IMG/VR virus record: IMGVR_UViG_3300025151_000048
Coordinates: 1-52,814 of that record
Strand: one strand, 5' to 3'
Origin: a virus
Lineage: Duplodnaviria > Caudoviricetes
Length of the DNA stretch: 52,814 nt
The notes under the pieces are model-generated. The model ran no database searches. It was given only the letters and a program-made list of their open reading frames with translations, and was not told the DNA's origin. The position numbers and the translations under genes were made by a program. Positions 216-16,900 of the stretch are shown here, piece after piece (position 1 is the first letter of the stretch; each line of letters begins with the position of its first letter).

Positions 216-3200
216 TTAATCGAATAAAAATGCAGTGGCAATACTGTCTTTTATTCTTTGGTTTTCTTCCCTTGTTGCTTTTGCTTTTCGGGCTTTTTCT
301 TTATTTTTTCTATCTTGCTCAGCGTCATATTCAAGCCTTTCTTCAAAGGTCATATTTGCTATTCTTTGTTCTTCTTTTCTTTTGTTTTCTTTTCTAGTCT
401 TTTTAGCTTTTTCAATACCTTCTTTTTTTCTTCTTTCCTTTGCTTCAACTTTTATTAAATCGTGTTCTTCGTTTTTAGCTCCAACTCCCCATGTTCTCCA
501 GCCTAATGCTAAAGCTATTCTTTGCCAAGCAGTATTTCTTTGGTCAAGCGCCTCTGCCACCCCATTAACTTCTATTAAGGCCCTATCTAATGGTAAATTA
601 AACAATGCCGATGCTAATTGTCCTACAACATTGTAGCTAGGGCTTATATTTAATCTACCATCCATTGTAACTTCCCACCCTCTTTTTGCTATAATATCTG
701 CATCAATTCTTGATGTTTGAATAGCGCCATATATTTTTCTAGCCTTACTGCCAATTGGAGGAGATATATTTATTGCTTCAATTATAGTATAAGCATGATC
801 AGCTAAAAATCCTTTTTGCTCTTGCTCATAGTATTCTCTAATTGTATTTTTAACAGTAGATAAAACAGCACCTTTTAATCCAGATCCTCTTAATAAAGTA
901 TCTATCATGCTATTAATTATGGTTTCCTGCTTTTTAGCTTGTCTAGCTAATTCTTTTTCTTCAGTTTCTTCTTCATCACCAAATCCTGGTACTAATGCAA
1001 ATAATGCATTTTGTAATGAAGCAAATATAAAGTTTTGTATCATACCATAATAAACTATCTTAGATATATTGGTTTTTGCATCCCCGCGTCCATTTATAAG
1101 GTCCTGACCAGCTTTTTTAATTAATCTTGAATATTGCATTGGAGTATTCTGGAAAGCCAATATAAGACGCCCTAATACGCTCGCTTGTTCTTGAGAAATT
1201 AACGATGGATCTGCAGATTGCTGATTCATATCAGATATTTTGCTAAAATCTGCCCAGGCTTGTGCTTCTGCTTCAGCTTGAGACATTCCTTGCTTTAAAT
1301 AAGTATTAATTCTATTTCTATAAAAAGTTGCACCACCACTAGAAATTGCAAAGTTATCTGCAAGTTGTGTTGGTGTAAAACCAATTTTTAATAAATAAGA
1401 TATAACACCTCTAACACCACCCCTTTTAGCAGCCTCTGCTAATTCAGCTTCCTGCACATCTCCTTTTAATCCACCTCTTCTTTGTTTTAATTTAGCTGAA
1501 TTCCATATAAATGCAAAGTCTGTCCAATATTGTTTTTGATTTGCAAATGCAATAGCAGATTTTAATGGATTATTATCTGACCAATTTATAAAGTTAAATG
1601 ATGATATAGTTTGTAATAACGCGGATCTTCTATTAAAGAACATTATAGTACCAATGGCATCATTAACCCAATTCATCCAACCATTAACTATTCTGTTTTG
1701 TCCAAATGTTCTATTTCTACCCGTTTTCATTCTATAAATAGAATCTTCTAAAGCCTCTCTATGTTTAGTACCATATAAAGCTTCAATCTTATTAAGGGTT
1801 TTTTCATCAAATATTAAATCAACATTTTCATTAAATTCAGATAAATACTCTTTTCTTAATACTTTATCAGCAAAGTCTCTATAATCTTGCATTATATTGC
1901 CAGAATCCCAAAATTCAGTAGGTTCAATATATTTGGTTCTTTTTGTAATAGATTGTACACCATCTGCAAAACCAGATAATTCAGAATCATTTTCTACAGT
2001 TTTATTTAATAAAGCAACATCTCTTTTTGATAATCCATATTTTGTCATATCATAACCAGACCTAGTAAATAATGTTACTCTAACTGCATTTTCATATGTA
2101 AAGTTTGTCCCTGGTATTTTTTTACCAAGCTTTCTTCTAAAAGGCTTACCCATTAAATTAGTTAATCTACTATAATCTTCTTTCATGGTTTGCCTAGCAG
2201 TTTCTAAAGCCGCTACACCTCTAGCATAAGGTGTCATAATATTATCTTCAATAAATTTTTGGTCTTTTTCACCTTGCTTGCCTTTACCAGCAAATGCATA
2301 TGCCGTTAGCCCTCTAAAATCTTCAGCAGAAGGCGGTATGTACCAATTTAAAAATGACCATTTATCTTTTTGCCTACCTTTAATTCTTGCTTGAATTTTT
2401 GAATACTGAGCTTCAGCTTTAATGCCTTTTTGCCTTTCAATCATTTGATTCATTTCTGCATTCAGCCCTTTGCTCCACGCAATCCTTGCTTGCTGTACTT
2501 TACTTTTTACGTCAAAATTATCTAATACATCTTTAACTGCTTTAACATTAGCAATAGCATCGTCAGCAAAATAAAAGTCATTATAACCTTCCGCAACTTT
2601 CCCAACTATCCAATCTGCTTTAGCTTGAGGGTCCCCATTTGCAAGCCCTGTAATATTTTCTAATTTTAAATCAATACCCATTCCTTTTAAAAATGCGTGT
2701 ATAGCAACCGCCGCCTCAGGATCCCTGGCTGTAAGTATAAACACATTTTCATTGCCAAACTTATCAACCGCTTTTTTAAGTTTATTAAACAATGGTCCAG
2801 GCTTGCCATCTACAACTTTATTAAATTCTGTATAATCAAACTCAGCCCCTTTGCTCATTAATTCATTATGTTTTTTAGCAAATTCAGTAGCATTAATTTT
2901 AAACTTAGTGCCATCAGGCATTGTAACACCAACTTTACTTTTACTAATAGCAACGGTGTCATCAAAATCTAAAACACTAATTCCTTTACGTTTTTTAGAA
3001 AAATCCCAAGTTCTACCTTTACTAAAAGCTATATCTGTACTTTCAAGATATTTAATTGTTTCACTAAGCTTTCTTTTATTAATTACTTTACCTGCTTCTT
3101 CATATGTCTTACCAATTTCTATTTTTTCCCCTTTAGGGTTAAGACTTACAATAGCTTTAATTCTTGGATCACCAAAAGTTAAAAAATTATAATATCTTTT

Positions 3201-6200
3201 CCACACTGGTTGTTCTAATGTGTAGTCTGCGGGCATAAATTGTGTTAGTCTTACTTCGTCTAAAACTTTATCCATTGTTTTAGGAATTAAAGACGTTTGA
3301 TATTTACTAAATAATTTATCAGCCAATGCATCTGCATCAGCATTTTTATTATTTACATAATAATCTATTAAGTTAACTATTACATAATTTGTAGGCATTA
3401 TATGCTCCCATCTATAATCAGAAGCTTTTAACCCTTTTTGTATCGAAGCATATTCTAAATTAGCGGCTCTTTTAATAGGTGATTGCATAGTTTGTTGCAT
3501 AGACATAATAGTCATACCCATGTCCATATTATCAAAAGATCTATCATTTTTAATAATCTTCATCATGTTTTTAACAAAGCCCTGCACTCTTTTTGCTTGC
3601 GCTTTTCTTTCATCAAAATCAAAATCATCCGAAAGTTCACCATTTTTATCAATTACAGAATTAGTTGCTTCTGGTAATAATGTATATTCACTAGGATCAA
3701 TTACTTTGCCATCAATTTTTAATTCAATTAATTGGCCTTTGCCGTCTAGCTTATATTCTATTTCACCCTCATATTCATTTACTATTGTATCAAAGAAATC
3801 CTTATTATTTTCAAATACTTGATAACCTTGTTTAGGTAATTTACCTTTAGGGGCATCAGGATATAATTTTTTCATTTCGGCATCAGTTCTTCTAACTATT
3901 TGCCCTTTTTCTATTTTAAAAGTTCTATTACCTATTCTACCTGATGTAGAAAACATTCCTTTACCTATAGAAAATAAATCTATAATAGCTTGTTTTTTGC
4001 CTTTCTCTGTTCTAAACCTTCTAACAAATCTACCAACTAATCCTCTTTGTTTTTTTATTCTATCAATATCGTCAAACCCTTCAGTTATAGGCTTATCTAA
4101 GTCTAATAGTCTTCTTACAGTCTCAGAGGTTTCAGCATTAACAAATTGGTCTTTAAGGAACTTTCCAAGTACTTTTTTATTAATAATAGGTAGTTTTTTA
4201 ACTACGGGTTTAGCTAAATTAAATAGTTTTGCATAATTATATAAATCGTTTGCAATAGCATTTATTTCTTTTTTCGTTAGAGCATCCCCATATACTTTTG
4301 TTAATTTACTTTTAAAGTATTCTTTCATTTCATTTCTAACCTCTTTCTCGCCTTCTTTATCTAACCCCTTAGGTATATCAACTTTCCCAACATCTAAAAC
4401 AGTTGTAAATTGAGTTAGCCTATCATAAAATATTTCTTTTTTAGCATCTGTTAAATTATTGACACCTTTACTCCAAGCTATATTTCTTGTGCCAAATTGC
4501 ATATCTAAATCATTAACAAATGCTTCGCCCTCATATCCCTCTTTTCTTAATACATCTGTTTGTAATTCAAAAGAAGCAGTTGAAGCCAGCCAATCAGCAT
4601 AAGATAGCACCCTAGCTCCATATACATTGGACGCTTCTCCTTCCGCCTTCATGTATTCTTTAAATTTTTTCCTAGCGTCTTCTTTGTCAATCTTTTTCCA
4701 TTTTCTATTTCTGGAATATATATTTTTAATTTTTTTACCTTGGCTTAACCCTTTATCTATAGCGTCATTATGTGCTCTAGCTTCAGCTACACTCATAAAC
4801 GCAGGTGAACCATCTGTATTTGTTGCTCTTTCTGTTAAAAATGGATATTTAGCATTTGCAGTTCCAATATCCATTCTATCCCACATTGCATCAAAAGTTG
4901 AATCTACAAAATTTTCAACATTGATTCTTTTTTGCTTATTTGATATTTTATCTTTCTTAGGATCTGTATTAAATTTATCACCTCTTTGCATTACATTTCT
5001 AAATAATAAAGAAACTTTTTGTTGATACTCTTTCGATAATTCTGTTCTAAACTCTGGAGTACCTATAGGATTTTTAAATTTACCAAGTTTTGTTTTAAAT
5101 GTTTTTAATATATTATTTTCAATTTCAGTTGTAATTTCAGTGGGAAGTGGGACTAACTTACCATCTGAATCTTTAAATTTTAAAGTATTAAGTAAATCTT
5201 TTTTCTTTTTTCTTTTCTTATTATCTTCCCCTCTTTTTTTATCATCATCAGTTGGGTCTGTATCAGTTATATTTTTTACTTGCGGAGCATTAGGATCTAA
5301 CCTTGCTGGTAATTGATTAAATGTTTGTTTAGCTAAAGTAAACACTCTAAAATATCCTCTATTTCTTACAAATTTATCTAAATCCTGTGTTTTTACAATA
5401 CCATCTTTACCAGGTTTTAAGTATTCTTGCTGAATCATAGTATATAATTCTGTAGCAACATCTCTTTCCCATTCGTCTTTAGTAACATTATTTCTATTCA
5501 TAGGATCAACACCGCTCCAAATATAATTAGCTTGTGATTTAATATAAGGCATCATTTCTTGCATCAATTCCGATTCCATCATATCCTCTACAAGATTCCC
5601 ATCAGAGTCTCTACTTAATTTTTCATTTAAAAAACTATTTAGTTTGTCTCTTTTTTCCTCTTCACTAATTCTACTATATCTTGAGCCGCTAGACCTATTT
5701 TCTTTTATAAATTTATTAAGCAAGCCTTCTAAATTAGTACCTTTTGACGCAGCTAAATCATATACACCCGCAGGGGCATCGGTGTCAATGTCTGAAATAA
5801 GAGTAGTAACCGCTGCACTTTGCTTAGCTTCTTTAATATCTTTCAATGTTAAATCACCTGCTTTAATTTTTTTACCAAGACCAACAACAAAATTATACAT
5901 GTCATTTTCACCTCTAAAATCAAAATTGTAATCAGCATCAAAATGCTTCTGTACCATTGTACCAAATAATAGGGATAATCCTTTATTTTTTTTCTCAGTT
6001 ACAAAATCAACATCTGAACGCCCAACATATTCTAAAAATACAGATATAACTTCTTTGGAGTCAAGTGATCCATCGCTATTATATATACGCCCATCTTTTA
6101 AAAATTCTTTATATAATTTTTTATCAACAGACTTTAAAGTAGTTAAAATTTGCTTTGATATATCTGCGAAAGCAACGTCATGGTCAGTACCAGAAAATAT

Positions 6201-9200
6201 ATCCCAAAATGCTTGATGACCAATTTCATGAGTTTTAATTTCAGACCTTTCATTAATAACTTGATTTTCAACTACAGCTATAGTAACTACATTTTTTATA
6301 GCGACTCCATCATTTTTACCAACTTTTAACCCCTTGATTAAATTATCTTTTAAATTTTTAACCGCATCTTCAATAGTCATAGTTTTACCATCCGGCATTT
6401 TATATTTACCATCTTCCATTAAAGTACCTTGCTCTTCTAATGTAGCTTTAGCAACTGCTGTTAAATCTAATTCATCATTAATATAATTTTCTGCATCTGC
6501 CACAGTATCAAATGATTGGAAATTATATCTATTTTTTACTCCTTTTTTAAGCTTAGCGTTATTTTCTTTAATTTTATCTGTCCAATATAAATCTGATGCT
6601 TCTCTTTCTAGTGCCGAACCTTTTGGGTCTTTACCATCAGCTATTAATTTTTGCTTAGCTTTGTCAATATATTGATTATAAAGCTTAGGATCTTTACCTG
6701 CTAATGCAATAAACTCAGTTCTAAATTGTTGCTTTGCTTTATCGCTTAATGCATTTGTTTTTATTGCATCAAGCTGGTTAAATTGATCTCTTAATAAATT
6801 AATTGCTCTGGCTTTATCTTCTTTAGACATTTCAGAATCAGGAATATTAAGAATTTCATTTGCAGTATTTTGCAATTCCATTTGTGCTTCAGTTATAGAA
6901 ACTATATTAGACGCAGCGCCAGCACCCATATGATTATTAATTAAATCAGTTTGCCTTTCCATTTCAGCATTATACTCTTGGTTTACTTGCTCTAATTCTT
7001 TTATATAAATAGCCCTTGTTCTATCTGAAGATCTACCGTCATTAATTTTTCTACTTAATTCTAATTTTTTATTAAATAATTCCCTTGTTTTCTTTAAAGA
7101 ATTTCTATCAGACATTCTAGACTGATACATTCCTTTTAAAAATGGAACTCCTGCAAATAATAATGTCATAGATGCACCAGAGAACCCTGCATGACCTATA
7201 TTATCTAAGAGGCCTATATTTTTACCCGACATTATTTCAACACCGTTTTGTAAACCCATAGTGGTTGTTTCACCTAATGTTTCTAAAAGTATTTCACTTC
7301 TTAGTGAGGGTAATTGAGAATTAATAAATGCGTTTTGGCCGCCTTCTAATAATTTATCTTGCCCATTGGCAACCCATCTTTGCTGAGCTCTTTTTAATAT
7401 AGGAACTGTTGTATAATGAGAAATTACACCTTCAATTCCACCATATCCAAGCGAGGTTAATAACATGTTAAGTTCAGAATAATCTGCCGTACCCTGCACC
7501 ATTTCTGATTGCATATCTGAATATTTACCACCCGCTGAAGAAGCCCCTATTGTGAGAGCCCCATATCCACCACTCATCATAATAGCAGCAAATATTGGTA
7601 ATTGTGTAGATGTTTCTTGAAGCATAAATCTACCAAATCTACTAGGGCTAGTAAAAGCACCATAATCTCCTGTAAATTCTACGTCTCTAGTATACTGTGC
7701 TCTTTCTCTTTGTGATAATTCATTATACCCTGTAAAAAAGCTTTGTACTCCTTCGCCTAATTTACCCTCAAAAGCTAAATGATCAACAGCCATTCCAGCC
7801 CAACCAAAAGGCGTTAAGTATTCTGTAATTTTATATCCAGTTTGCGCAATACCAAATGCAATATCACCAAACCCAAGCCCAATGTTACCCATATATTTTT
7901 CTCCTAATTGGTAATTCAAAGCAAAAGCTTGTCCTGCAATTTCATCATCAATAATTTCAGCGGCGGCATTATTTGCTTTTTCAGAGTATTCTTCTTGTAA
8001 TTTAAAGCGTGTTAACATATCTTGATATGCTAATGCATATATACCCGCAACATTAGAATTAATAATTTTACCATTTTCCAATACAACATCTTGACCTTCG
8101 CCAAAATCAGGTAAAAATAAACCTTTTTCAGTTGCAAATTGTGTAAACTTTTCTATTTGTTCTTCTGTAAATCTAATATTTTCTGCACCAAGAGGGTTTT
8201 GTATTTGTTCTTCAATTATACGTAAAATTTCTTTGTCTTGTTCAATATAACCAATATTAACATCTTGTTTAGTCATATTTTTATCATACTCTTTAAATTC
8301 ACGTAATTGAGAACTTACCTGACCAAGATAAAAGCGCCCTAATTCTTTGCCCCTATCACCCATTTCTGCAATATGTGTATCAACCCATTTAGCCTGATGT
8401 TCATTTATATGGTCAGTATATAAACGTTGTCTTACAATTTGTTGTGCAACTTTTTCAATAGTAATTTCTTCTTCTTCATCTAGTTTACCGCCATAATTAA
8501 CAAAAACACTTCTTAATTGATTTTCATCTAAATTTTCATTTTTAAGTTTTTCCGAAGTGCTATTTATTAAATCTGAATGAGGATATGTAGTAGTAGTCGT
8601 TCCTTCGTGTATAGTTGCTGTAGGTGAATGTTTTGAAGCAAATGTAACTGTTCGTGGGGATGTTGTGGTAACGGGTTTAAATAAATCTTCATTATTTAAA
8701 TATAATTTTTTGCCTTCCTCTCTAACAGGAGCCATTTCGCTTTCTTGTAAAGATTCATAATATGCGCTTGCTTCCAACCCTAAATGTTCCACTTGCCTCC
8801 ATACATCCCAAGAATCTATATTACCAGCTTCAATTTCTTTCTTTAAAAAATTATGTAATTTTTTATTATTTTCTTCTGCAAGTTTATTAGCCCCCTCTTC
8901 ATCTCTATAATCTAGCCAGTATTTACTTTCGCCATGTAACCCATCTAAATCAAATTCTAATACTATTTCTTCGCCAGATTTTTTACTTTTTATTTTAATT
9001 CTATCCCAGCCGACATCAGTTGCTTCTATTTTTAATCCTGGAATTTCACCTAAAATAGATTTAACCTTTGATAACCCATCATCTTCTTCACTGGTATATA
9101 ACTCGAATCCTTTGCCTTTAACTAGTTTAGTCTTACCCTCTTTATCCTGTTTTGTTGTAACACCTCTTGCTTGGTCAGTAAGAATTTCAGCAAGTTCATC

Positions 9201-9698
9201 AGCTGATTTATCAGTAAAGCCTTTAACTTCTTCATCTAGTTTAATTAATTGTCTAGATTTTATATCATAACCGTACTTACCAGTTTTAATTTTTTCAATA
9301 ATAAAAGCGTTATCCTTATCATCATGACTAAAACGTAATACCCCACCAGCTTTTTTAGCTAGTTCTATAAACAGTCCGCCTTCCCCAGTATAATTTTCCC
9401 AATCTGTTTTAGCAATATCACTAGGTAATTCTTCAAGTGTAATAACTCCGTCTCCATTATCTCTTTTTTTAACTATTTTATTAAAATATAGCTCATCTAC
9501 ATTTTGCCTACCATCTTGGTCTAACCCAATTGCTTCGGGAGCTTTTATAGTTAATCTTCTATCTAATATATTTGGTTCAGCAACCTCTGGAATATCTTCT
9601 ATTTCAGTATTTGCTACCTCCTCATTAAGGGGAATATTATCAAGCCACGAAAAATCTTGAACTTCTTCCGTAGTTTGCTTTAATAATGATCCTTTCAT
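216..9698 (-). CDS. Giant virion ejection/cargo protein (large polyvalent-type polyprotein): zincin metallopeptidase, sigma-region-2-like, EHxxP (HNH-like) and HAD phosphatase modules
   Basis: 3160 aa; third of three genes after the tail nozzle (T7 gp14-16/P22 gp7-20-16-like position); HEIGH at aa 1157; DFDDT..ILTAR..FADD HAD motifs from aa 2244; WEHIMP at aa 2097; Gly-rich hydrophobic segments around aa 600-860. Confidence 0.75.
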   Translation of the reverse strand: MKGSLLKQTTEEVQDFSWLDNIPLNEEVANTEIEDIPEVAEPNILDRRLTIKAPEAIGLDQDGRQNVDELYFNKIVKKRDNGDGVITLEELPSDIAKTDWENYTGEGGLFIELAKKAGGVLRFSHDDKDNAFIIEKIKTGKYGYDIKSRQLIKLDEEVKGFTDKSADELAEILTDQARGVTTKQDKEGKTKLVKGKGFELYTSEEDDGLSKVKSILGEIPGLKIEATDVGWDRIKIKSKKSGEEIVLEFDLDGLHGESKYWLDYRDEEGANKLAEENNKKLHNFLKKEIEAGNIDSWDVWRQVEHLGLEASAYYESLQESEMAPVREEGKKLYLNNEDLFKPVTTTSPRTVTFASKHSPTATIHEGTTTTTYPHSDLINSTSEKLKNENLDENQLRSVFVNYGGKLDEEEEITIEKVAQQIVRQRLYTDHINEHQAKWVDTHIAEMGDRGKELGRFYLGQVSSQLREFKEYDKNMTKQDVNIGYIEQDKEILRIIEEQIQNPLGAENIRFTEEQIEKFTQFATEKGLFLPDFGEGQDVVLENGKIINSNVAGIYALAYQDMLTRFKLQEEYSEKANNAAAEIIDDEIAGQAFALNYQLGEKYMGNIGLGFGDIAFGIAQTGYKITEYLTPFGWAGMAVDHLAFEGKLGEGVQSFFTGYNELSQRERAQYTRDVEFTGDYGAFTSPSRFGRFMLQETSTQLPIFAAIMMSGGYGALTIGASSAGGKYSDMQSEMVQGTADYSELNMLLTSLGYGGIEGVISHYTTVPILKRAQQRWVANGQDKLLEGGQNAFINSQLPSLRSEILLETLGETTTMGLQNGVEIMSGKNIGLLDNIGHAGFSGASMTLLFAGVPFLKGMYQSRMSDRNSLKKTRELFNKKLELSRKINDGRSSDRTRAIYIKELEQVNQEYNAEMERQTDLINNHMGAGAASNIVSITEAQMELQNTANEILNIPDSEMSKEDKARAINLLRDQFNQLDAIKTNALSDKAKQQFRTEFIALAGKDPKLYNQYIDKAKQKLIADGKDPKGSALEREASDLYWTDKIKENNAKLKKGVKNRYNFQSFDTVADAENYINDELDLTAVAKATLEEQGTLMEDGKYKMPDGKTMTIEDAVKNLKDNLIKGLKVGKNDGVAIKNVVTIAVVENQVINERSEIKTHEIGHQAFWDIFSGTDHDVAFADISKQILTTLKSVDKKLYKEFLKDGRIYNSDGSLDSKEVISVFLEYVGRSDVDFVTEKKNKGLSLLFGTMVQKHFDADYNFDFRGENDMYNFVVGLGKKIKAGDLTLKDIKEAKQSAAVTTLISDIDTDAPAGVYDLAASKGTNLEGLLNKFIKENRSSGSRYSRISEEEKRDKLNSFLNEKLSRDSDGNLVEDMMESELMQEMMPYIKSQANYIWSGVDPMNRNNVTKDEWERDVATELYTMIQQEYLKPGKDGIVKTQDLDKFVRNRGYFRVFTLAKQTFNQLPARLDPNAPQVKNITDTDPTDDDKKRGEDNKKRKKKKDLLNTLKFKDSDGKLVPLPTEITTEIENNILKTFKTKLGKFKNPIGTPEFRTELSKEYQQKVSLLFRNVMQRGDKFNTDPKKDKISNKQKRINVENFVDSTFDAMWDRMDIGTANAKYPFLTERATNTDGSPAFMSVAEARAHNDAIDKGLSQGKKIKNIYSRNRKWKKIDKEDARKKFKEYMKAEGEASNVYGARVLSYADWLASTASFELQTDVLRKEGYEGEAFVNDLDMQFGTRNIAWSKGVNNLTDAKKEIFYDRLTQFTTVLDVGKVDIPKGLDKEGEKEVRNEMKEYFKSKLTKVYGDALTKKEINAIANDLYNYAKLFNLAKPVVKKLPIINKKVLGKFLKDQFVNAETSETVRRLLDLDKPITEGFDDIDRIKKQRGLVGRFVRRFRTEKGKKQAIIDLFSIGKGMFSTSGRIGNRTFKIEKGQIVRRTDAEMKKLYPDAPKGKLPKQGYQVFENNKDFFDTIVNEYEGEIEYKLDGKGQLIELKIDGKVIDPSEYTLLPEATNSVIDKNGELSDDFDFDERKAQAKRVQGFVKNMMKIIKNDRSFDNMDMGMTIMSMQQTMQSPIKRAANLEYASIQKGLKASDYRWEHIMPTNYVIVNLIDYYVNNKNADADALADKLFSKYQTSLIPKTMDKVLDEVRLTQFMPADYTLEQPVWKRYYNFLTFGDPRIKAIVSLNPKGEKIEIGKTYEEAGKVINKRKLSETIKYLESTDIAFSKGRTWDFSKKRKGISVLDFDDTVAISKSKVGVTMPDGTKFKINATEFAKKHNELMSKGAEFDYTEFNKVVDGKPGPLFNKLKKAVDKFGNENVFILTARDPEAAVAIHAFLKGMGIDLKLENITGLANGDPQAKADWIVGKVAEGYNDFYFADDAIANVKAVKDVLDNFDVKSKVQQARIAWSKGLNAEMNQMIERQKGIKAEAQYSKIQARIKGRQKDKWSFLNWYIPPSAEDFRGLTAYAFAGKGKQGEKDQKFIEDNIMTPYARGVAALETARQTMKEDYSRLTNLMGKPFRRKLGKKIPGTNFTYENAVRVTLFTRSGYDMTKYGLSKRDVALLNKTVENDSELSGFADGVQSITKRTKYIEPTEFWDSGNIMQDYRDFADKVLRKEYLSEFNENVDLIFDEKTLNKIEALYGTKHREALEDSIYRMKTGRNRTFGQNRIVNGWMNWVNDAIGTIMFFNRRSALLQTISSFNFINWSDNNPLKSAIAFANQKQYWTDFAFIWNSAKLKQRRGGLKGDVQEAELAEAAKRGGVRGVISYLLKIGFTPTQLADNFAISSGGATFYRNRINTYLKQGMSQAEAEAQAWADFSKISDMNQQSADPSLISQEQASVLGRLILAFQNTPMQYSRLIKKAGQDLINGRGDAKTNISKIVYYGMIQNFIFASLQNALFALVPGFGDEEETEEKELARQAKKQETIINSMIDTLLRGSGLKGAVLSTVKNTIREYYEQEQKGFLADHAYTIIEAINISPPIGSKARKIYGAIQTSRIDADIIAKRGWEVTMDGRLNISPSYNVVGQLASALFNLPLDRALIEVNGVAEALDQRNTAWQRIALALGWRTWGVGAKNEEHDLIKVEAKERRKKEGIEKAKKTRKENKRKEEQRIANMTFEERLEYDAEQDRKNKEKARKAKATREENQRIKDSIATAFLFD

Positions 9699-9705
9699 AT
9701 TTTTT

Positions 9706-10824
9706 TTATTCTGGGCAAGCGCCTTGAGCGTATGTTATTGTTCCATCAGAGTGCGTATATTTACATACCATAACACCACCGCCTCTATCTACGGTCTCTT
9801 TTTTTGGAGGTTTTGTATACCCTTTATATTTATCTTCATATTTACCTTTATAATAATCATCATATTCATCACCTAAATCATTTCTGTACATTTCTTCAGA
9901 TTCTTTAGCAACAGTTTTAATACTGCCTAATAAATGATTACTTAGCCATTTTCTTAGAAGTGGTTCATTTTCTAAAACATCAACAAATTCATCAGGTAAT
10001 TCAGGATTATTTATAATAGCCGACCCAGCACCCATTCCATTATCCATTACAATAGACATTAAATCCTCTCTAGACATGCCGTCTAATATATTATCTATTT
10101 TATATCTATAATTTCTTTCTAAATAGCTACCATCTTTAATAACCGACTTTAAGTTATGAGCTGTTTCTGTTAATGTTCTAAGTTCATTAAAACCTTCTGC
10201 GTTTATTAAATTATAATCATATCTAGGGTCACCAGACATTTTATTCATGTCTATTAACTCTTCACCATGTAATAAACTAACACCACCATTTTCATCAATT
10301 TCAATATCATATTCGTTATGTGGACTATATAAATTATTTAAATTTATTCTAGACTCATCTGAATATGCACTAATTAAATTATTGCCAAAGTCTTCGTAAT
10401 ATTTACCTCTTCTTTCTTTAAAACCATCTAAAGTAGTACTTAAATTTTTAATAGCGCTATTTATGCCATTCATTTTTTGTACAGCTCTTATATATTCTTC
10501 GCTCATAGGGTCTGCTTTTGCAGCTATTCTAGACGCTTCAAAATAATCATTTTTTTGAGTAATTAAAAATTCATTAACCTCAGGCCTCATTGATTCTTCA
10601 ACTTTAGAAAGATCAAATGAACCATAATTATTAACATATTTTTGCATTTCTAATTCATCTGCTCTTTGACGCGCTAATTTATCTCTATATTTTAGCAAAG
10701 CCATACGACTATCTCCACCCATTAATCCCTTATACATAGGTGTCATAATATCTACATATGGTTTAGAGGCTGCCCCTGCCCCTCTAATTAATGCCGCTTG
10801 TTGTTTTATTGGTGAATTTTCCAT
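9706..10824 (-). CDS. Putative middle ejection (internal virion) protein
   Basis: 372 aa helical protein between the small and giant ejection-like genes; N-terminal SPIKQ motif. Confidence 0.55.
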   Translation of the reverse strand: MENSPIKQQAALIRGAGAASKPYVDIMTPMYKGLMGGDSRMALLKYRDKLARQRADELEMQKYVNNYGSFDLSKVEESMRPEVNEFLITQKNDYFEASRIAAKADPMSEEYIRAVQKMNGINSAIKNLSTTLDGFKERRGKYYEDFGNNLISAYSDESRINLNNLYSPHNEYDIEIDENGGVSLLHGEELIDMNKMSGDPRYDYNLINAEGFNELRTLTETAHNLKSVIKDGSYLERNYRYKIDNILDGMSREDLMSIVMDNGMGAGSAIINNPELPDEFVDVLENEPLLRKWLSNHLLGSIKTVAKESEEMYRNDLGDEYDDYYKGKYEDKYKGYTKPPKKETVDRGGGVMVCKYTHSDGTITYAQGACPE

Positions 10825-10834
10825 GTTATTTATA

Positions 10835-11488
10835 TTATACTGCCTGATTTTGTTCTATATGATCAGCACCAGCTCCTAATAAGCTACCAACCCCTCCCAT
10901 TATACTTTGAGTTGCTGCTTGTCTTGCTTGATTTGCAGCTGCTACTCTTTGTTGGGACATTCCTAATAATGTACTTACTTTTTGTCTTTCTAGCCCTCTT
11001 GCTGTTTCTGCACCAGCTAGCTCTGCTTGATCTACTGCTGCCGCTCCTTGTGCCGCTTTTACTTGGTTTGCAGATTCTTGCGCGCCTAAGCCCGCTGCAG
11101 TTTGTTGTGCTGCTACATTACCTTGCCCTGCTAATGCTTGAGCCATTGCGGCAATACCAGAACCTCCTGCAGCACCACCCATATTAGACATAATATTAGA
11201 CATATTTTGCTGTTGCTGCTCTCTTTCAAAATTAGCTGCTTGTTGATTTACAGTTAAATCTTCAAATTGATTTTCCATATTAGCCGCAAGGTTAGATGTA
11301 TCTAAATTTTCAAATCTAGCTTTATTTCTATTCATTTCAGCCATAGCCGCTCTTTGCTCTTGCCTTCTTCCCTTGCCACCAATAATGCCACCCGCAATAC
11401 CGGTTAACCCAGTTATTGCGCCTTTCATTACGCCGGCGGTAAGACCTGCTTGTTTTATTGCTGATGAGTTATATAATCCTTGTGCCAT
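10835..11488 (-). CDS. Putative small ejection/DNA transfer protein (P22 gp7/T7 gp14-like)
   Basis: 217 aa, Ala/Gln/Gly-rich with Gly-rich hydrophobic ends and a coiled-coil middle; immediately downstream of the tail genes. Confidence 0.65.
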   Translation of the reverse strand: MAQGLYNSSAIKQAGLTAGVMKGAITGLTGIAGGIIGGKGRRQEQRAAMAEMNRNKARFENLDTSNLAANMENQFEDLTVNQQAANFEREQQQQNMSNIMSNMGGAAGGSGIAAMAQALAGQGNVAAQQTAAGLGAQESANQVKAAQGAAAVDQAELAGAETARGLERQKVSTLLGMSQQRVAAANQARQAATQSIMGGVGSLLGAGADHIEQNQAV

Positions 11489-11512
11489 TTTTTATTAATT
11501 AATTGTTATTAT

Positions 11513-11541
11513 TATTATTACATTTTTAATCAGTAAACTAA
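11513..11541 (-). promoter_or_regulatory. Candidate late promoter TTA-N17-GTAATAWTA
   Basis: Same motif and spacing at 11513, 31263 and 46693, each intergenic and upstream of a minus-strand gene block. Confidence 0.5.
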
Positions 11542-11543
11542 CT

Positions 11544-11888
11544 TTATTTACTGCTTTGGAACACTTCTGAACCAACAGAAAATAATTCAACTTCTGTAGT
11601 AGAATCATTTCTAAATTGAACTTCTGCATAATATCCTTTTAAATTTGATGTATTTGCTCTAGATTCTTTTGCAAAGAATATATAGCTACTATTAGTAGGC
11701 GGGTCTACATTAACAGGTATTTGTGCTGTAACTGTTGTGTTGCCATTGGCGGCTACAGTTATACTTGCAATAGCGCCTATTTCGATAATAGTATCACCAC
11801 CATCATTAGTATAATATAATACATCTCCAATTTGCGCTGATACATTCAACGCAAACGGGAATAGTAAAGTTATTAATTGTGTATCCAT
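11544..11888 (-). CDS. Tail protein resembling the C-terminal piece of the tail stabilisation/nozzle protein
   Basis: 114 aa ending LKGYYAEVQFRNDS..VELFSVGSEVFQSSK, a beta-rich ending recalled from related phage nozzle proteins. Confidence 0.5.
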   Translation of the reverse strand: MDTQLITLLFPFALNVSAQIGDVLYYTNDGGDTIIEIGAIASITVAANGNTTVTAQIPVNVDPPTNSSYIFFAKESRANTSNLKGYYAEVQFRNDSTTEVELFSVGSEVFQSSK

Positions 11889-11900
11889 TTTATATTTTTA

Positions 11901-13964
11901 TTATGTACAACCTGTACCTCCTCTTGTTATAGTTGTATTTGCTGAATCTGCCGCTTCTGGATCCCATCTTTGACCACAGAAAGTATTACCACTTGTTTCA
12001 TTTCCAACCGATATATTTTGTAAATTACCGGTACAATCTATATATGTTATAGTTGTTGTTTTGGATGTTTTACCAGTATACACATATGTATATGTATAAC
12101 AATTTGCAGAACAAGCACCAGCGTTTGTAATTGCAACTGTACCATCTCCACTTGTTGTATATGTTGCAGCTGGAGTAGTTAAACCACAGAATGTAAATGA
12201 ATCACCATTAGGTACTTTTATAGTATAAGTTTTACCACTACAAGCTGTGAAATCTAAAGATCCACCTCTAGGTGCACTACCCGCATTATCATTAAGTGTC
12301 CAAGTACAACATGTATTTGTGCTGCCAACTGTTATTAATGATGTTAAATCTAATGTAAATGTTTGTGAAGTATCCCCATACTTTTCAATAATTCCATTAA
12401 CTTTTATAGTAACAGTGGTTTGGTCCGCGGATAAAGTTGCTGTTACTGGTAATTCTAATACACTCCCTTTTCTATTGCTAAATTTTAACTCAGAGCCTCC
12501 TTCAGCAACAGTATATGGTAAATGTAACTGTTGAGGTGTTACAGTTAAATTATTACTAGCTATACTAGAAACTGTACATACAGGTGGTGTGCCAGCAGTA
12601 GTAACACTATAAGCGGCATTAGGGTCAGCCGCTTCCATCCTCATACCTGTGGCAATACCAGTTACCACCGCTACAGGCACCGTAGTGCTTAACTGTACTT
12701 CCTCTGTATTTTCTGTTGTATATTCAGTTAGGTTTGTCCAAGAGACTGTAGGGTTAGAAACTAAAGATATAGCTTGTCCAGCTGCCGCTGTAACTGTCCA
12801 CTTTATTGTATTATAATAATTACTACTACCAACTGAAGGAGAAGAATTTGAAGGATATGTTCTTGTTATTGTAGTGCTTGCTTGTTCAGCATCATTTAAT
12901 GCCGCAGATGTAACAGTTAAATTAGCGCCAGTAGTATTAAATGTTAATATTACTTTGCCATATTGATTTATACAAACAGGATTAATTTGCGGGAATGGTT
13001 CTATTAAATCCCCATCTAAAGTAAAACAATATTGGTCGGCTGTTGCAGATGCTGGTATTTCTATATTAACATCTACATACCCAGAAGCTGGTATAGTTTG
13101 TATAGGCGTTATTGAATAAGAATAAACAATTCCGCTATCTTCTGGTAATGTAAGTATTTCCCCATTGCTAGATTCTAAAGTAAATGTTGCGCCAACATTA
13201 CCATATACACGCATTGTTTTTTGGCATCCATCAGGCCCTACGTCAGAGGTATCTAATGTGTAATTTGTTATTTTAATTTCAGGTACTTGTATTTGAGTAG
13301 GTTGAAATAATTTAATCCTTACTTTATCATTTATTAAATAAGCATCACTACCTTCGCCACATTTATCAGTAAAGGTATAGTTTACACTTATTGTAGTTGA
13401 TGTTACCTGCCCGTCTGAATTAGTAGTATTGGTTTCTGTAACGCTATATTGATTAGAGTCTGATACAAATAATTCTGCAGACGGAATAGTTTGATTTGCA
13501 AAAAAGTATCCACTTTGACACGTATATGTTCTTGAAAATAATGTAACTGTTTGCCCTTCTACGCCACAGACATTAAATATTGTGTTTTCTGGTATAGGAC
13601 TACCAGTTTGAATATTATAATATGTGCTTCCTCCAGAAACTTCTAAATCTATATCGCAGCAAAGCTCACTTATAACTGCCTCGCCAGAAATACAAAGAGC
13701 TAAATCAACATTAGCCGCGGGCATTGTAAATGGATTATCAAAAGTAACTGTGCATAATACATTATTGCCATCTTGAGTAAATATAACAGTATTTATATAA
13801 TTTAAATCTGTATTTGTCCAAGAAAAATCATTGGCATTAATTGAATAACCTTCATCTGGTGTTATTGTTAATACAGCAGTAGGATGAGTATTATATACAT
13901 TTGTACCAGAAACTGCAGTATAAACTACGGATGTTATTGTATAATTATTTAAAGATGTAGGCAT
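11901..13964 (-). CDS. Tail-associated beta-rich (Ig-like) protein with Cys-containing C-terminal repeats
   Basis: 687 aa, Thr/Ser/Val-rich; two C-terminal repeats (CxxWT..FTACSG..FTFCG / CYTYT..YIDCTG..NTFCG). Confidence 0.6.
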   Translation of the reverse strand: MPTSLNNYTITSVVYTAVSGTNVYNTHPTAVLTITPDEGYSINANDFSWTNTDLNYINTVIFTQDGNNVLCTVTFDNPFTMPAANVDLALCISGEAVISELCCDIDLEVSGGSTYYNIQTGSPIPENTIFNVCGVEGQTVTLFSRTYTCQSGYFFANQTIPSAELFVSDSNQYSVTETNTTNSDGQVTSTTISVNYTFTDKCGEGSDAYLINDKVRIKLFQPTQIQVPEIKITNYTLDTSDVGPDGCQKTMRVYGNVGATFTLESSNGEILTLPEDSGIVYSYSITPIQTIPASGYVDVNIEIPASATADQYCFTLDGDLIEPFPQINPVCINQYGKVILTFNTTGANLTVTSAALNDAEQASTTITRTYPSNSSPSVGSSNYYNTIKWTVTAAAGQAISLVSNPTVSWTNLTEYTTENTEEVQLSTTVPVAVVTGIATGMRMEAADPNAAYSVTTAGTPPVCTVSSIASNNLTVTPQQLHLPYTVAEGGSELKFSNRKGSVLELPVTATLSADQTTVTIKVNGIIEKYGDTSQTFTLDLTSLITVGSTNTCCTWTLNDNAGSAPRGGSLDFTACSGKTYTIKVPNGDSFTFCGLTTPAATYTTSGDGTVAITNAGACSANCYTYTYVYTGKTSKTTTITYIDCTGNLQNISVGNETSGNTFCGQRWDPEAADSANTTITRGGTGCT

Positions 13965-13965
13965 A

Positions 13966-16900
13966 TTAACAGTTATTTAATTGATTCATAGTCTTTATTT
14001 GAGTTATAATTCCATTTTCATAAACGACAAATTTAAATACACCGTTCATATTAGGCCAATTAGCATTAGTATTCCAATTTTGTATATTAAAAGTCCAACT
14101 ACAAGTATTATATGTAGTGGTACTAGGGTTTTGGCCACTTGATTGTATACAATCATTAGAATCAATATGATTAGAATTCCATGCAAATATACCATCATCG
14201 CTGTTGCCCATTGGAGTATCATCCATGTTATAAAGCTGTGTCCCAACTTGTATTCCATCCCCTGGCGCATATTTAAAACTAGTACCTATTCTATCGGTAT
14301 TTGTATATCCGCCAATTGATGCTAAAAATTCAAGAATTCCACATTTAGCTGTTTGCGCTCTATCTGCTGGGGCAGTTGATGAGTAAGCTGTTAGCAGGTT
14401 TAATACTGGTCCATTATTTTTACAAGCTATGCCGGTTGTTGCTGTAAATGTTATATAAGACGCAGGTTGAGTACATGCCGCCAATGTATTATATTGTGTT
14501 TTTGCAGTTATTTTACTATTTTCAACAGTTATAATATAATATGTATCAGGCACTGTAGCGGAGTTGTCATTTGCATTTAATGCACTATCACTTGGATCGC
14601 CTTGTCCTATATATAAATATTTACCATCCCATGCAGAACCAATTAAATTAAAGGGAGCAAATTCTTCATGCAGATAAGTACCTACTTCAATTCCCGCGCT
14701 AGCTAAGTGGTTGAATTTTTTAGACTCCTTAGTAATATTAGTAGCACCTACGGGATATTCATTATAAAATGTTTCAATAGCACATTTTACATTTTGATCA
14801 CTAGTTTCGGGTCTAATATCTGTAGTTCCGTTAGAGCCTCCCCATAAATACCAAAAATAACTTTTATAATTAGGTGTTTCAGTTGATTCTGTAGAACAAG
14901 AAGTATCTACACTTACTGTAATATTATATGTAGTAGGATTACTAGATGTTACAGTTGCATTACCTATACCCTGAACTGGGAATGCACTACTATCTATATT
15001 ATTGTCACAATTATCTACATACCTATTTGTTAATCCTTTTATTTTTTGGAACCATTTATTTTCTTTCTTTTTAAATTCTTTTATAGAACCTTCTTCAATA
15101 TCTGTATTTATATAATTAGTATACCAACCAGTTTTTGATAAAGTTTCACTATTAATTAGTGATGGCGTTATTTGCTGGTGGATTACTTGGTCCATAGTTA
15201 ATCCGCTTAATCCAGAAGACGTTCCGTATGTATATCTTCTAGAACTTGAGCCACTAAAGTTTAATGTTTTAAATCCTTTTACAGTTTCTGTGGCATCATT
15301 TAATACAACATTTACAGAACTATCATATTGTGTATCATATATATTATTATATGTATCATTAGAATATTCTTCCCAAATTAACCCTTTGTTAAAAGTATAA
15401 TACCTATCATTTATAGATACACCACTTTCCAAAGGATATACAGAACTACCTGATTTTGAATAATAAGATTTTCTACTAGTCCATCCACCGACAGTTTCTT
15501 TAAATGATAATGTTGTAGTATATATATTATCTGTAGTATCATCGGCCACCTCACAATGCGTTCTATCTTTAGGTGTTGAAGATAATTTATCTTGCCACTC
15601 CGCAGTTAAAGAATCTAATGTTAAATTATAATTTTCTTTATCATCATCATAACTACCTATAATTTTAGTACATACAGGCAAATTATCAGAAAAGAAATCA
15701 GCCATTCCTTTTAATGCAATATTAGTAATACCGTCTTGTGATAATCTAATTATTGCACCTCTATTTTTATCTGCAAAATAGCTTCTAAATCCATAAGCAG
15801 AAAATGACTCTGGATTTTTACTAATACCAAATTCACCAGCATAAGGCATTGCTTGCCCCAATACTTTGTTGTTAGATATAAGCTGTGGGTTCCCGCTGGC
15901 TTCAAATAAAGCATCTTTATTGGCTAATATTTGCAAACACTTATCTTCGCATAAGGTAATTAAATTGGTGTTCCTAGAATGCAGTTTTTGAATACTGCCA
16001 TATTCTGGGTTTAAGTCTTTTGTAATAGGTTCCCCTTGTATAAATTGATTAGTTCTATTTATACCAGACATAGAATTATATATACCAGAAAATATTAATC
16101 CACTGCCTCTTCTTTCTTCAGCATAAGGCCCTTCAAATATACTAGATACTTTTACACCTTTACCAACAATAGGGGCATTAAAATCATCTCTAATTCTATC
16201 AGATTCTACAGCATTACCGAATGAATAAACATTAGAATAATCTAATACTTTAGGTGAAGCGCCGTTAATTTCGGATATAGGAAATGCTTTACTTGCTTCA
16301 TAATATATATCAATATCAACAGCTTCTTTTGGCTCTGTTTCAAATATAGCTGGGTTTGTAGATGATAAAATAGAATTATTATCTGAAGATGAAGAATCTT
16401 CTGTTCGCACTTCAATACCCGCAAGCTTTCCTAAAGCAGTAGCAGATCCATCTCCAATCCATTCATCTCCAAAGCTACCCAGCGGCTCTTCTAATTCTAA
16501 GGCTATAGCTATATGCTTATTTTTTGAAGAATCTACCATGCAATTACTATCACAATCACTACATACAAATTTTTTTCTTCCTCTCCATTGTCCACATCTG
16601 TAATGGCGTTTAACCGTATATTCCCCTGAAACAAAATCAGCATTATCTGTACCAGCCTTACCAACTAATCTTATTTTAGCACCCTCAGCTAAATCAGTCA
16701 TAGGTTTACCAGTATATTGTAAACCATGAGTACTAAATTCTTCTTCATCAACAGTCCTACGCCCAACATAAACCATTGAAATATATTTCCCACCTACATA
16801 AGGGCGATTATAAACCTCATGCATTTTTGTCTCGGGGTCGCTATTAGGTGGGCCACCATGATTGCTGGTTGTATTTTTAGATCCATTTCCACCGCCTACA

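Follow-up and report, generated by a model that had tools for sequence, protein, structure and literature searches.

The last and largest gene of the virion module in a 52.8-kb phage-like window (IMG/VR record IMGVR_UViG_3300025151_000048, the whole stretch of 52,814 nucleotides that was analysed) encodes a giant protein, P0001, in which a hexamer of the form [IL]A[AWF]SKG occurs four times, always downstream of a predicted zincin-type metallopeptidase domain and always at a joint between modules (Table 1). These copies are best read as processing sites cut by the zincin domain of P0001 itself, and from the sequence evidence this predicted self-cleavage is given a probability of roughly 40%. 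This reading jointly explains the placement of the copies at joints after the protease, their six-residue footprint, the invariant catalytic residues and the cassette-like inserts of relatives. What is new is that a junction motif can be defined, that it is confined to the part of the chain beyond the peptidase and that its copies evolve in concert, the last of which was not foreseen in the earlier note on this DNA that had proposed a self-cleaving polyprotein.

The pattern scan recovered all four hexamers where the earlier note had placed them. Their serine codons differ (TCA, AGT, AGT and AGC), as do 4 of the 18 bases between the two IAWSKG copies, which places the conservation at the protein level. 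HEIGH is indeed upstream of all four sites and is the sole HExxH in P0001, the proposed pieces of 425, 483, 183 and 750 aa are arithmetically correct, and the HAD phosphatase domain is tightly bracketed, site 3 ending 5 aa before its fold match and site 4 starting 10 aa after it. Measured from DFDDT, which is HAD motif I, sites 1 to 4 lie at −929, −504, −21 and +162, and an additional degenerate copy in P0001, WDFSKK, is the counterpart of a copy at −11 in relatives. From composition, 0.0017 matches to [IL]A[AWF]SKG were expected where four were observed, and 0.088 to AxSKG. Hexamers at least 4/6 identical to IAWSKG were exactly the four sites (mean 0.49, maximum 3 in 1000 shuffles of P0001), and three hexamers were at least 5/6 identical (mean 0.013, maximum 1). 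The motif was not found in the other open reading frames of the window, save for one chance-like match in the large terminase. A longer repeat around the motifs was considered and rejected, as segment-versus-segment blastp gave only E values of 0.17-0.5 and hhalign aligned just the 9-column motif. Over these 9 columns the profile match of sites 2 and 4 scored 22.6, above all 80 random windows (maximum 16.7), and that of sites 2 and 3 was marginal at 14.6. That the copies have no common function and are due to chance, to composition or to relics of an old duplicated linker is very improbable and can be regarded as already disfavoured: the abundance of K, S and F in these proteins and the presence of [FWY]S[KR] at conserved places inside folded domains as well would fit such an origin, but the expected count, the shuffles, the missing longer repeat and the profile similarity of sites 2 and 4 speak against it, as do the confinement of co-variation to the six motif positions and the excess of own-hexamer copies described below.

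A search with aa 1280-2450 gave 302 proteins at E <= 0.001, all metagenomic, of 1,800-3,800 aa and almost none with a Pfam domain. With a profile of the HAD and C-terminal regions, 4,688 cluster representatives (50% clustering) were matched at E <= 0.001 and 1,991 at E <= 1e-30, and among the 150 matches listed the match is near the C-terminus. This HAD plus C-terminal module constitutes a very large family without a Pfam or PHROG model and without a member among 50,697 deposited phage genomes. The family architecture is constant, with a variable N-terminal part, HExxH, about 950-1100 aa, DFDDT and about 900 conserved residues. The motif is conserved in homologues at the same positions in a looser form, but the exact hexamer is not: the family core in the alignment is hydrophobic-[A/K]-[F/W/Y]-S-[K/R]-x, of which [IL]A[AWF]SKG is the local form in P0001. 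In the subfamily P0003-P0011, sites 2, 3 and 4 read [IV]A[F]S, and distant relatives have RGN[IV]KFSK at site 2, xFSKxPKGIS before HAD and QQAK[IV]KFSK after HAD. In a non-redundant set of 129 proteins that each have a single DFDDT, the [FWY]S[KR] tripeptide was present in the site-2 window (about −470 from DFDDT) in 55, in the pre-HAD window (−45 to −3) in 43, typically as xFSKxPKGIS, and in the post-HAD window (+164) in 66. It was also present at conserved places inside folded domains, as FDFSEFSKVV within HAD (53/129), IIFSKENLN (20/129, +380) and DFSKVSDE (19/129, +570), and the tripeptide alone is therefore not diagnostic.

A more discriminating scan was made by searching each protein with its own site-4 hexamer, the control being the hexamers of family members less than 60% identical. 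At an identity of at least 5/6 this gave 27 further copies, compared to 4.7 for the control, located relative to DFDDT at −950 to −800 (5), −550 to −450 (14), −50 to 0 (6) and +350 to +600 (3). These clusters are the positions pointed out in the earlier note, and at the site-1 position (−807 to −920) such copies were found in four relatives. At 4/6 identity the density of own-hexamer copies was 0.57 per 1000 aa downstream of HExxH (control 0.20) and 0.05 per 1000 aa upstream of it (control 0.05). The family-wide enrichment of motif copies is thus confined to the region downstream of HExxH.

A copy is more similar to the other copies in its own protein than to its counterpart at that site elsewhere in the family. 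Sites 2, 3 and 4 begin IAWSK, IAFSK and IAWSK in P0001, and the corresponding sites are VAFS at all three in P0003-P0011, VQFSK, WQFSR and VQFSK in P0030, VMFSK, VMYSK and VMFSK in L039, AKFSL, SKFSL and AKFSL in P0019, and VQFSE, PKYSE and IKFSE in P0036. Proteins in which a pair of sites has a non-majority residue in common were counted and compared with shuffled pairings, and shared non-majority residues were in excess only at −2, −1, +2 and +3 from the aromatic residue (z about 3-6), the flanks at −6 to −3 and +4 to +6 showing no excess (z −1.7 to 2.1). The footprint of the motif consists of two fixed and four co-varying positions. When the set was reduced to one representative per 70%-identity cluster (3000 shuffles), the observed number at position −1 was 7 for sites 2 and 4 (shuffled mean 2.2, reached in 4/3000 shuffles) and 5 for sites 3 and 4 (mean 1.3, 8/3000), and at position +2 it was 5 for sites 3 and 4 (mean 1.1, 4/3000). 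Of these clusters, nine have a shared residue other than K at −1 (A, Q, M or S) and ten at +2 (L in five; L, E, R, D, Q and S in all), and the participation of several different residues points to repeated events. Since the co-variation is confined to the six motif positions, the copies appear to be read by one lineage-specific, co-evolving partner. Such a pattern would be anticipated if the copies were cleavage sites recognised by a protease encoded in cis. It would equally be predicted by a shared partner of another kind, if each copy were an uncut docking or hinge element, located where a helix stops at a module border, and all copies bound to the same groove. This groove could belong to the conserved C-terminal domain, to the inside of the portal or capsid, or to the two small neighbouring ejection-type proteins. 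Docking would fold the 3160-aa chain compactly for packaging or would order its ejection, and the HExxH domain would then act elsewhere, on host proteins or the cell wall.

With self-cleavage, we infer that the zincin domain is what recognises the motifs and that recognition leads to cutting. As cleavage in front of a hydrophobic P1′ residue is common among zincins, the scissile bond would likely be just before the aromatic residue, with a P2-P4′ footprint. In alignment A4 of this region, H1157, E1158, H1161 and E1216 are invariant in 56/56 sequences. A conserved strand-like stretch, VVTIAVVEN, precedes the HExxH helix, the Gly before it is at least 90% conserved, and HEIGH is at the start of helix 58-69 of the AlphaFold2 (AF2) model. 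Judged from the alignment, E1216 presumably binds metal; an invariant Glu at such a place is as expected of a working gluzincin, and the HExxH domain is probably of this type. A sub-threshold profile match over HExxH was to the M48 peptidase 3c37_A (E 0.071), and Pfam peptidase matches among the 56 members, all below the curated cut-offs, were to ATLF in four (best E 0.0022), M78 in two, M90 in two and M91 in one. Look-alikes by ESM features were the LPD23, LPD1 and MuF_C clusters, with a score of 0.96. For the zincin region (A4 residues 1-245) paired with Zn and 51 aa surrounding site 2, complex prediction gave no answer (score 0.00), which bears neither way on binding.

The modules were modelled by AF2 with family alignments, giving a mean predicted local distance difference test score (pLDDT) of 75.6 for aa 1100-2299, and of 83.1 with a predicted template modelling score (pTM) of 0.72 for aa 2200-3160. 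Site 1 is at the end of a 30-residue stretch with pLDDT <50 (model residues 193-222) and directly precedes a helical module with a weak sigma-factor region-2-like fold match, the VIA matches beginning at aa 1322-1324, 2-4 aa after the site. Site 2 is in a 9-residue loop between helices with pLDDT <50 (model residues 635-643). All four sites consist of a helix end plus a break, in blocks of pLDDT 37-73; the eight other [FWY]S[KR] tripeptides of aa 1100-3160 are in blocks of 55-95, six of them at 85-95. Scans of the whole of P0001 and of its segments against Pfam, PHROGs and PDB sequences gave only a weak DUF2608 match on the HAD segment (Pfam, E 1.6e-4), and apart from it no Pfam family was matched by the whole protein, eight segments or three relatives. 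Neither did Foldseek against PDB give a match at E <= 0.001 for either AF2 model.

The earlier note had expected several takeover enzymes in the chain, and of these the HAD phosphatase is solid. Its VIA matches are 4xrp_A (Z 9.6, root-mean-square deviation (rmsd) 2.5 over 123 aa), T4 Pnkp 5uj0_B (Z 9.6) and 1ltq_A (Z 8.8), with dozens of other HAD enzymes next in rank, and in the model it is closest to the 3′-phosphatase domains of polynucleotide kinase-phosphatases. All five residues of DFDDT are invariant in alignments A2 and A3, and columns L-T-A-R, A-K-A and F-x-D-D, assigned to HAD motifs II-IV by reading, are invariant or at least 90% conserved in A3. The sigma-like module is weak, and the 483-aa and 750-aa pieces are without assigned activity. 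Sigma matches over the module include phage gp79, SigB, AlgU, sigma32 and sigma70 at Z 4.1-6.1, those in the top rows at 4.8-6.1 (9m7y_F Z 6.1, rmsd 4.1 over 89 aa; 8x6g_H Z 6.0; 8z6g_B Z 5.6; 8tom_L, sigma70, Z 4.1), are mixed with dynamin stalks and TetR domains and have Z below the level trusted for helical bundles; the part is alignable in the close subfamily only. An injected sigma-like module would be notable, but its scores are within the noise for helical bundles. The 425-aa piece is divided in two by a Lys/Asp-rich low-complexity linker (aa 1466-1500; 5199-5303, minus strand; pLDDT <50). The C-terminal region is the best-conserved part of the family (A3 identities to P0001 42-62%, pLDDT mostly 80-95); its fold is unassigned and it had no Pfam match, and its look-alikes by ESM features include LPD39 clusters (28% of members, 0.95) and LPD38 clusters (0.93).

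Additional modules in relatives come with additional motif copies. In P0025 a P-loop kinase (PF06414, residues 2199-2340) is flanked by copies at 2152 and 2575, with another at 3009, in P0112 a copy at 990 comes after the kinase at 783-951, and in L067 and L073 an insert of about 440 aa after HAD has xRYSKKI on both flanks. The P-loop kinases of relatives match Zeta_toxin/AAA_33 Pfam models. The P-loop is 34 aa after HAD motif I in P0025 and L012, and the kinase of P0112 is near HExxH, about 900 aa before HAD. A P-loop kinase together with a Pnkp-like HAD domain suggests a virion-carried kinase-phosphatase end-healing pair.

P0001 is best explained as the giant internal ('ejection' or polyvalent) protein of a phage that is podovirus-like and has Flavobacteriia-type hosts. 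Under self-cleavage it would be made as a precursor, and cutting, either in the capsid or following injection, would yield five parts. These would be an N-terminal piece retaining the protease, a module of about 425 aa with a sigma-2-like start, a module of about 483 aa, a Pnkp-like HAD phosphatase of about 183 aa and the conserved C-terminal domain of about 750 aa. Tentatively this may be extended to the family of 4,688 representatives, which would then be injected self-cleaving polyproteins in which the protein's own zincin reads a lineage-specific six-residue 'cleavage code', frees the modules and permits cassette swapping.

Several results weigh against self-cleavage, and a first group concerns the peptidase. 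The proposed zincin protease is upheld by HExxH and the invariant downstream Glu, but the zincin fold is not confirmed structurally: in the HExxH region, folded as part of the larger aa 1100-2299 model, it was recovered neither by AF2 (pLDDT <50 up to HExxH) nor by VIA/Foldseek, where no peptidase was listed. The aromatic-Ser pair at site 4 is missing in 39/110 HExxH-bearing relatives and present in 71/110 with HExxH versus 4/11 without it, and P0013, with EELFH in place of HExxH, retains all three sites. That HExxH-less relatives keep the motif makes the tie between motif and intact active site weak, and a coupling of HExxH loss to site-4 loss was rejected because these counts are too weak and confounded by relatedness. 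The same observations would allow the sites to be cut by another phage protein or by a host protease in the cytoplasm or periplasm, and not by the HExxH domain in cis. Such an enzyme acting in trans is improbable, as no other protease family was found among the scanned virion-module proteins (nine by PHROGs, nine by Pfam), a host protease would leave the lineage-specific co-variation unexplained unless host range tracks it, and the copies are enriched only downstream of HExxH.

A second group concerns the sites. Sites 3 and 4 are each the last turn of a helix, in blocks of pLDDT 66-73 and 71 respectively, the latter followed by a break at Gly2411, and are predicted to be helical, not disordered; the expectation that the motifs are in linkers therefore holds for their position at module boundaries, outside recognisable fold cores, but not for these two sites. 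Site 4 is inside a conserved segment, DVKSKVQQA[KR]xKFSKxLxxxFNxIIExxxG, in which N2417 (55/55), E2421 (53/55) and G2425 (53/55) are more conserved in A3 than the motif residues (F/W/Y 37/55, S 41/55, K/R 27/55), and a site in so strongly conserved a segment suits a folded structural element. Low-confidence linkers at aa 1466-1500 and 1829-1855 in the AF2 model are without the motif. Site 1 is weak in relatives (IANSAS or VALSSG), its profile similarity is not above background, and it shows no convincing co-variation with sites 2 and 4. In P0002, the closest homologue at 62% identity, three of the four sites differ from the P0001 hexamers. At one representative per 60%-identity cluster (9-18 usable clusters) the co-variation is just a trend, and as the shuffles ignore relatedness the evidence from it is strong without being final. 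Searching 50,697 phage records by tblastn with aa 1050-2410 and with aa 2411-3159 brought up no cultured relative. Precedent is mixed, since P1 DdrB is processed, whereas gp50 of phage N4 is packaged unprocessed despite its HExxH subdomain (PMC5512222, PMC13434306).

The docking element described above gains from part of this, namely the helical prediction of sites 3 and 4 at moderate confidence, the highly conserved surroundings of site 4, and the retention of the motif in HExxH-degenerate relatives such as P0013. It gains also from N4 gp50, which has an HExxH subdomain and is not processed (PMC5512222), and from phi24B gp47 (2811 aa), for which the available portions of the report mention no fragments and suggest a cell-wall role for its metallopeptidase (10.64898/2026.04.10.717836). 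Docking is nevertheless unlikely, if a serious contender, as its groove partner consists of candidates only and it offers no obvious reason for the restriction after HExxH or for the placement at module borders, those of the inserts included. Furthermore, a short six-residue footprint of hydrophobic-x-aromatic-Ser-Lys is typical of a protease cleft.

In RNA-virus polyproteins a cis-encoded protease cuts at a shared consensus at domain joints, and the consensus differs between lineages. P0001 has the same layout in one chain: its protease domain is a predicted one, and the joints between its domains carry a common site consensus that differs between lineages. Unlike them it belongs to a DNA phage, is virion-delivered, has another peptidase type, and its cleavage is predicted only. 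Prohead proteases cut internal head proteins after L/I-x-E in T4 and at S/A/G-x-E in phiKZ-like phages, and there too a short repeated consensus marks the cut sites in packaged internal proteins. In those systems a dedicated protease acts in trans on many proteins, whereas here the motif is confined to one protein, which has its own predicted peptidase.

In its architecture P0001 falls among the polyvalent proteins described by Iyer et al. 2017, who proposed zincin autoprocessing for them and cited P1 DdrB as processed (PMC5512222). Like these it is a giant multi-domain virion-module protein with an HExxH hub and unrelated enzymatic modules (PMC5512222), the parallels being the HAD phosphatase and, in P0025 and P0112, the P-loop kinase. 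It differs in that no Pfam LPD or MuF_C model matches P0001 (HMMER), all such likeness being of the language-model kind, and in having a defined, co-varying junction motif where the available portions of that paper name no cleavage motif (PMC5512222). P1 DdrB is the one cited case of known processing for such a protein; it is virion-associated, has a C-terminal zincin-like domain and is proteolytically processed before packaging, but it is much smaller, has another architecture and, in the same portions, no described repeated site motif (PMC5512222). The N4 virion RNA polymerase gp50 (PDB 9pnt) is likewise an ejected virion protein of about 3500 aa, in which the HExxH subdomain C1 (residues 2124-2375) is followed by a large all-helical region without structural relatives (PMC13434306). 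The match of P0001 aa 1169-1266 to gp50 2247-2357 (Z 2.9, rmsd 5.2, 93 aa) is far too weak for homology, and no RNA polymerase module was detected in P0001 by PDB sequence search, the folded part being aa 1100-3160. In phi24B gp47 of an E. coli Stx phage, a 2811-aa virion protein and proposed internal ejection protein, the domains are LPD5, LPD1, LPD38 and a MuF-C metallopeptidase; compared with P0001 by description, it differs in that a peptidoglycan role is suggested for the peptidase and that processing is not reported in the available portions (10.64898/2026.04.10.717836). No cleavage motif for such proteins was described in the literature searched, which comprised the available portions, supplements aside, of sources including PMC5512222, PMC13434306 and 10.64898/2026.04.10.717836.

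Zincin autoprocessing of phage and plasmid polyvalent proteins has been predicted since 2017 without defined sites. Residue-level candidate sites, an invariant active site and a co-variation signature now make this prediction directly testable. If it is true, DNA phages use a polyprotein strategy for injected proteins, module gain is explained by inserts that arrive with their own flanking motif, and the mature injected proteins can be predicted by rule for thousands of uncultured aquatic phages. Should the motif prove to be a docking element, it still marks the organisation of a 3000-residue chain for packaging and ejection.

Table 1. Features of P0001 and of its virion module, with positions in the protein and in the window.
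Feature	Residues (aa)	Window position	Strand	Basis
Giant virion-module protein P0001, 3160 aa		216..9698	minus	Open reading frame list and translation
Predicted zincin-like (gluzincin-type) metallopeptidase region	~1120-1300	5799..6341	minus	Alignment A4, 56 sequences
HEIGH	1157-1161	6216..6230	minus	Only HExxH in P0001
Glu1216, candidate third metal ligand, 59 aa after first His	1216	6051..6053	minus	A4 column E150
Site 1, LAASKG	1315-1320	5739..5756	minus	Pattern scan
Helical module, weak sigma-factor region-2-like fold match	1322-1462	5313..5735	minus	VIA
Site 2, IAWSKG	1740-1745	4464..4481	minus	Pattern scan
Site 3, IAFSKG	2223-2228	3015..3032	minus	Pattern scan
Extra degenerate copy WDFSKK	2231-2236	2991..3008	minus	Directly before HAD strand 1
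HAD-fold phosphatase domain; motif I DFDDT at aa 2244-2248	2233-2396	2511..3002	minus	VIA
Site 4, IAWSKG	2406-2411	2466..2483	minus	Pattern scan
Conserved all-helical C-terminal region	2411-3160	219..2468	minus	A3, AF2
1893-aa protein, crAss muzzle C-terminal domain (crAss_MUZ_C, PF25729, E 2.3e-7); PHROG 14478		13966-19647	minus	Pfam/PHROGs
Portal		25313-27739	minus	PHROGs
Large terminase (TerL)		27741-29957	minus	PHROGs

The virion module of the window is on the minus strand, and the P0001 gene follows those for the portal, capsid-type, muzzle-like and several small proteins. The closest relatives of the portal are from podoviruses of Flavobacterium, Cellulophaga, Maribacter and Tenacibaculum (43-54% identity), and the 1893-aa neighbour suggests a crAss-like muzzle on the tail of a Flavobacteriia-type podovirus. 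The nearest deposited relative by portal, MW202828.1 (L001), has a giant protein of 3859 aa at the same position (741-12320) with two HExxH sequences (HEFGH at aa 1615 and 2500). By blastp it has no detectable similarity to P0001 (best E 0.22), and a motif of this form is absent from it. The slot of the giant gene is conserved between the two phages and its occupant has been replaced.

Related loci were not found with the single protein as query, but 80 were found with alignment A1. Natural gene splits at the motifs were sought and rejected, as the frame changes that interrupt the genes of L069 and L022 are within conserved domains and not at motifs. In both loci (L069:4709-12603 and L022:6338-14363) the giant gene is broken into overlapping open reading frames, which may reflect sequencing error or frameshifting. 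Short family members start at scattered places 123-613 aa before DFDDT and give no support for splits at motifs, truncated calls being possible among them.

Upstream of the giant gene there is regularly a Gly-rich protein of about 210-250 aa, with a GGIIGSGKRKREQR-type stretch in relatives, together with a protein of about 370-630 aa. The pair is at 9706-11488 on the minus strand of the window and in the same place in L010, L022, L041, L052 and L069, and with the giant protein it makes up a set reminiscent of the three ejection proteins in T7- and P22-like podoviruses. The N-terminal third of P0001 (aa ~600-850; 7150-7900, minus strand) has several Gly/Ala-rich hydrophobic stretches that look membrane-active and would fit a role in an envelope-spanning conduit.

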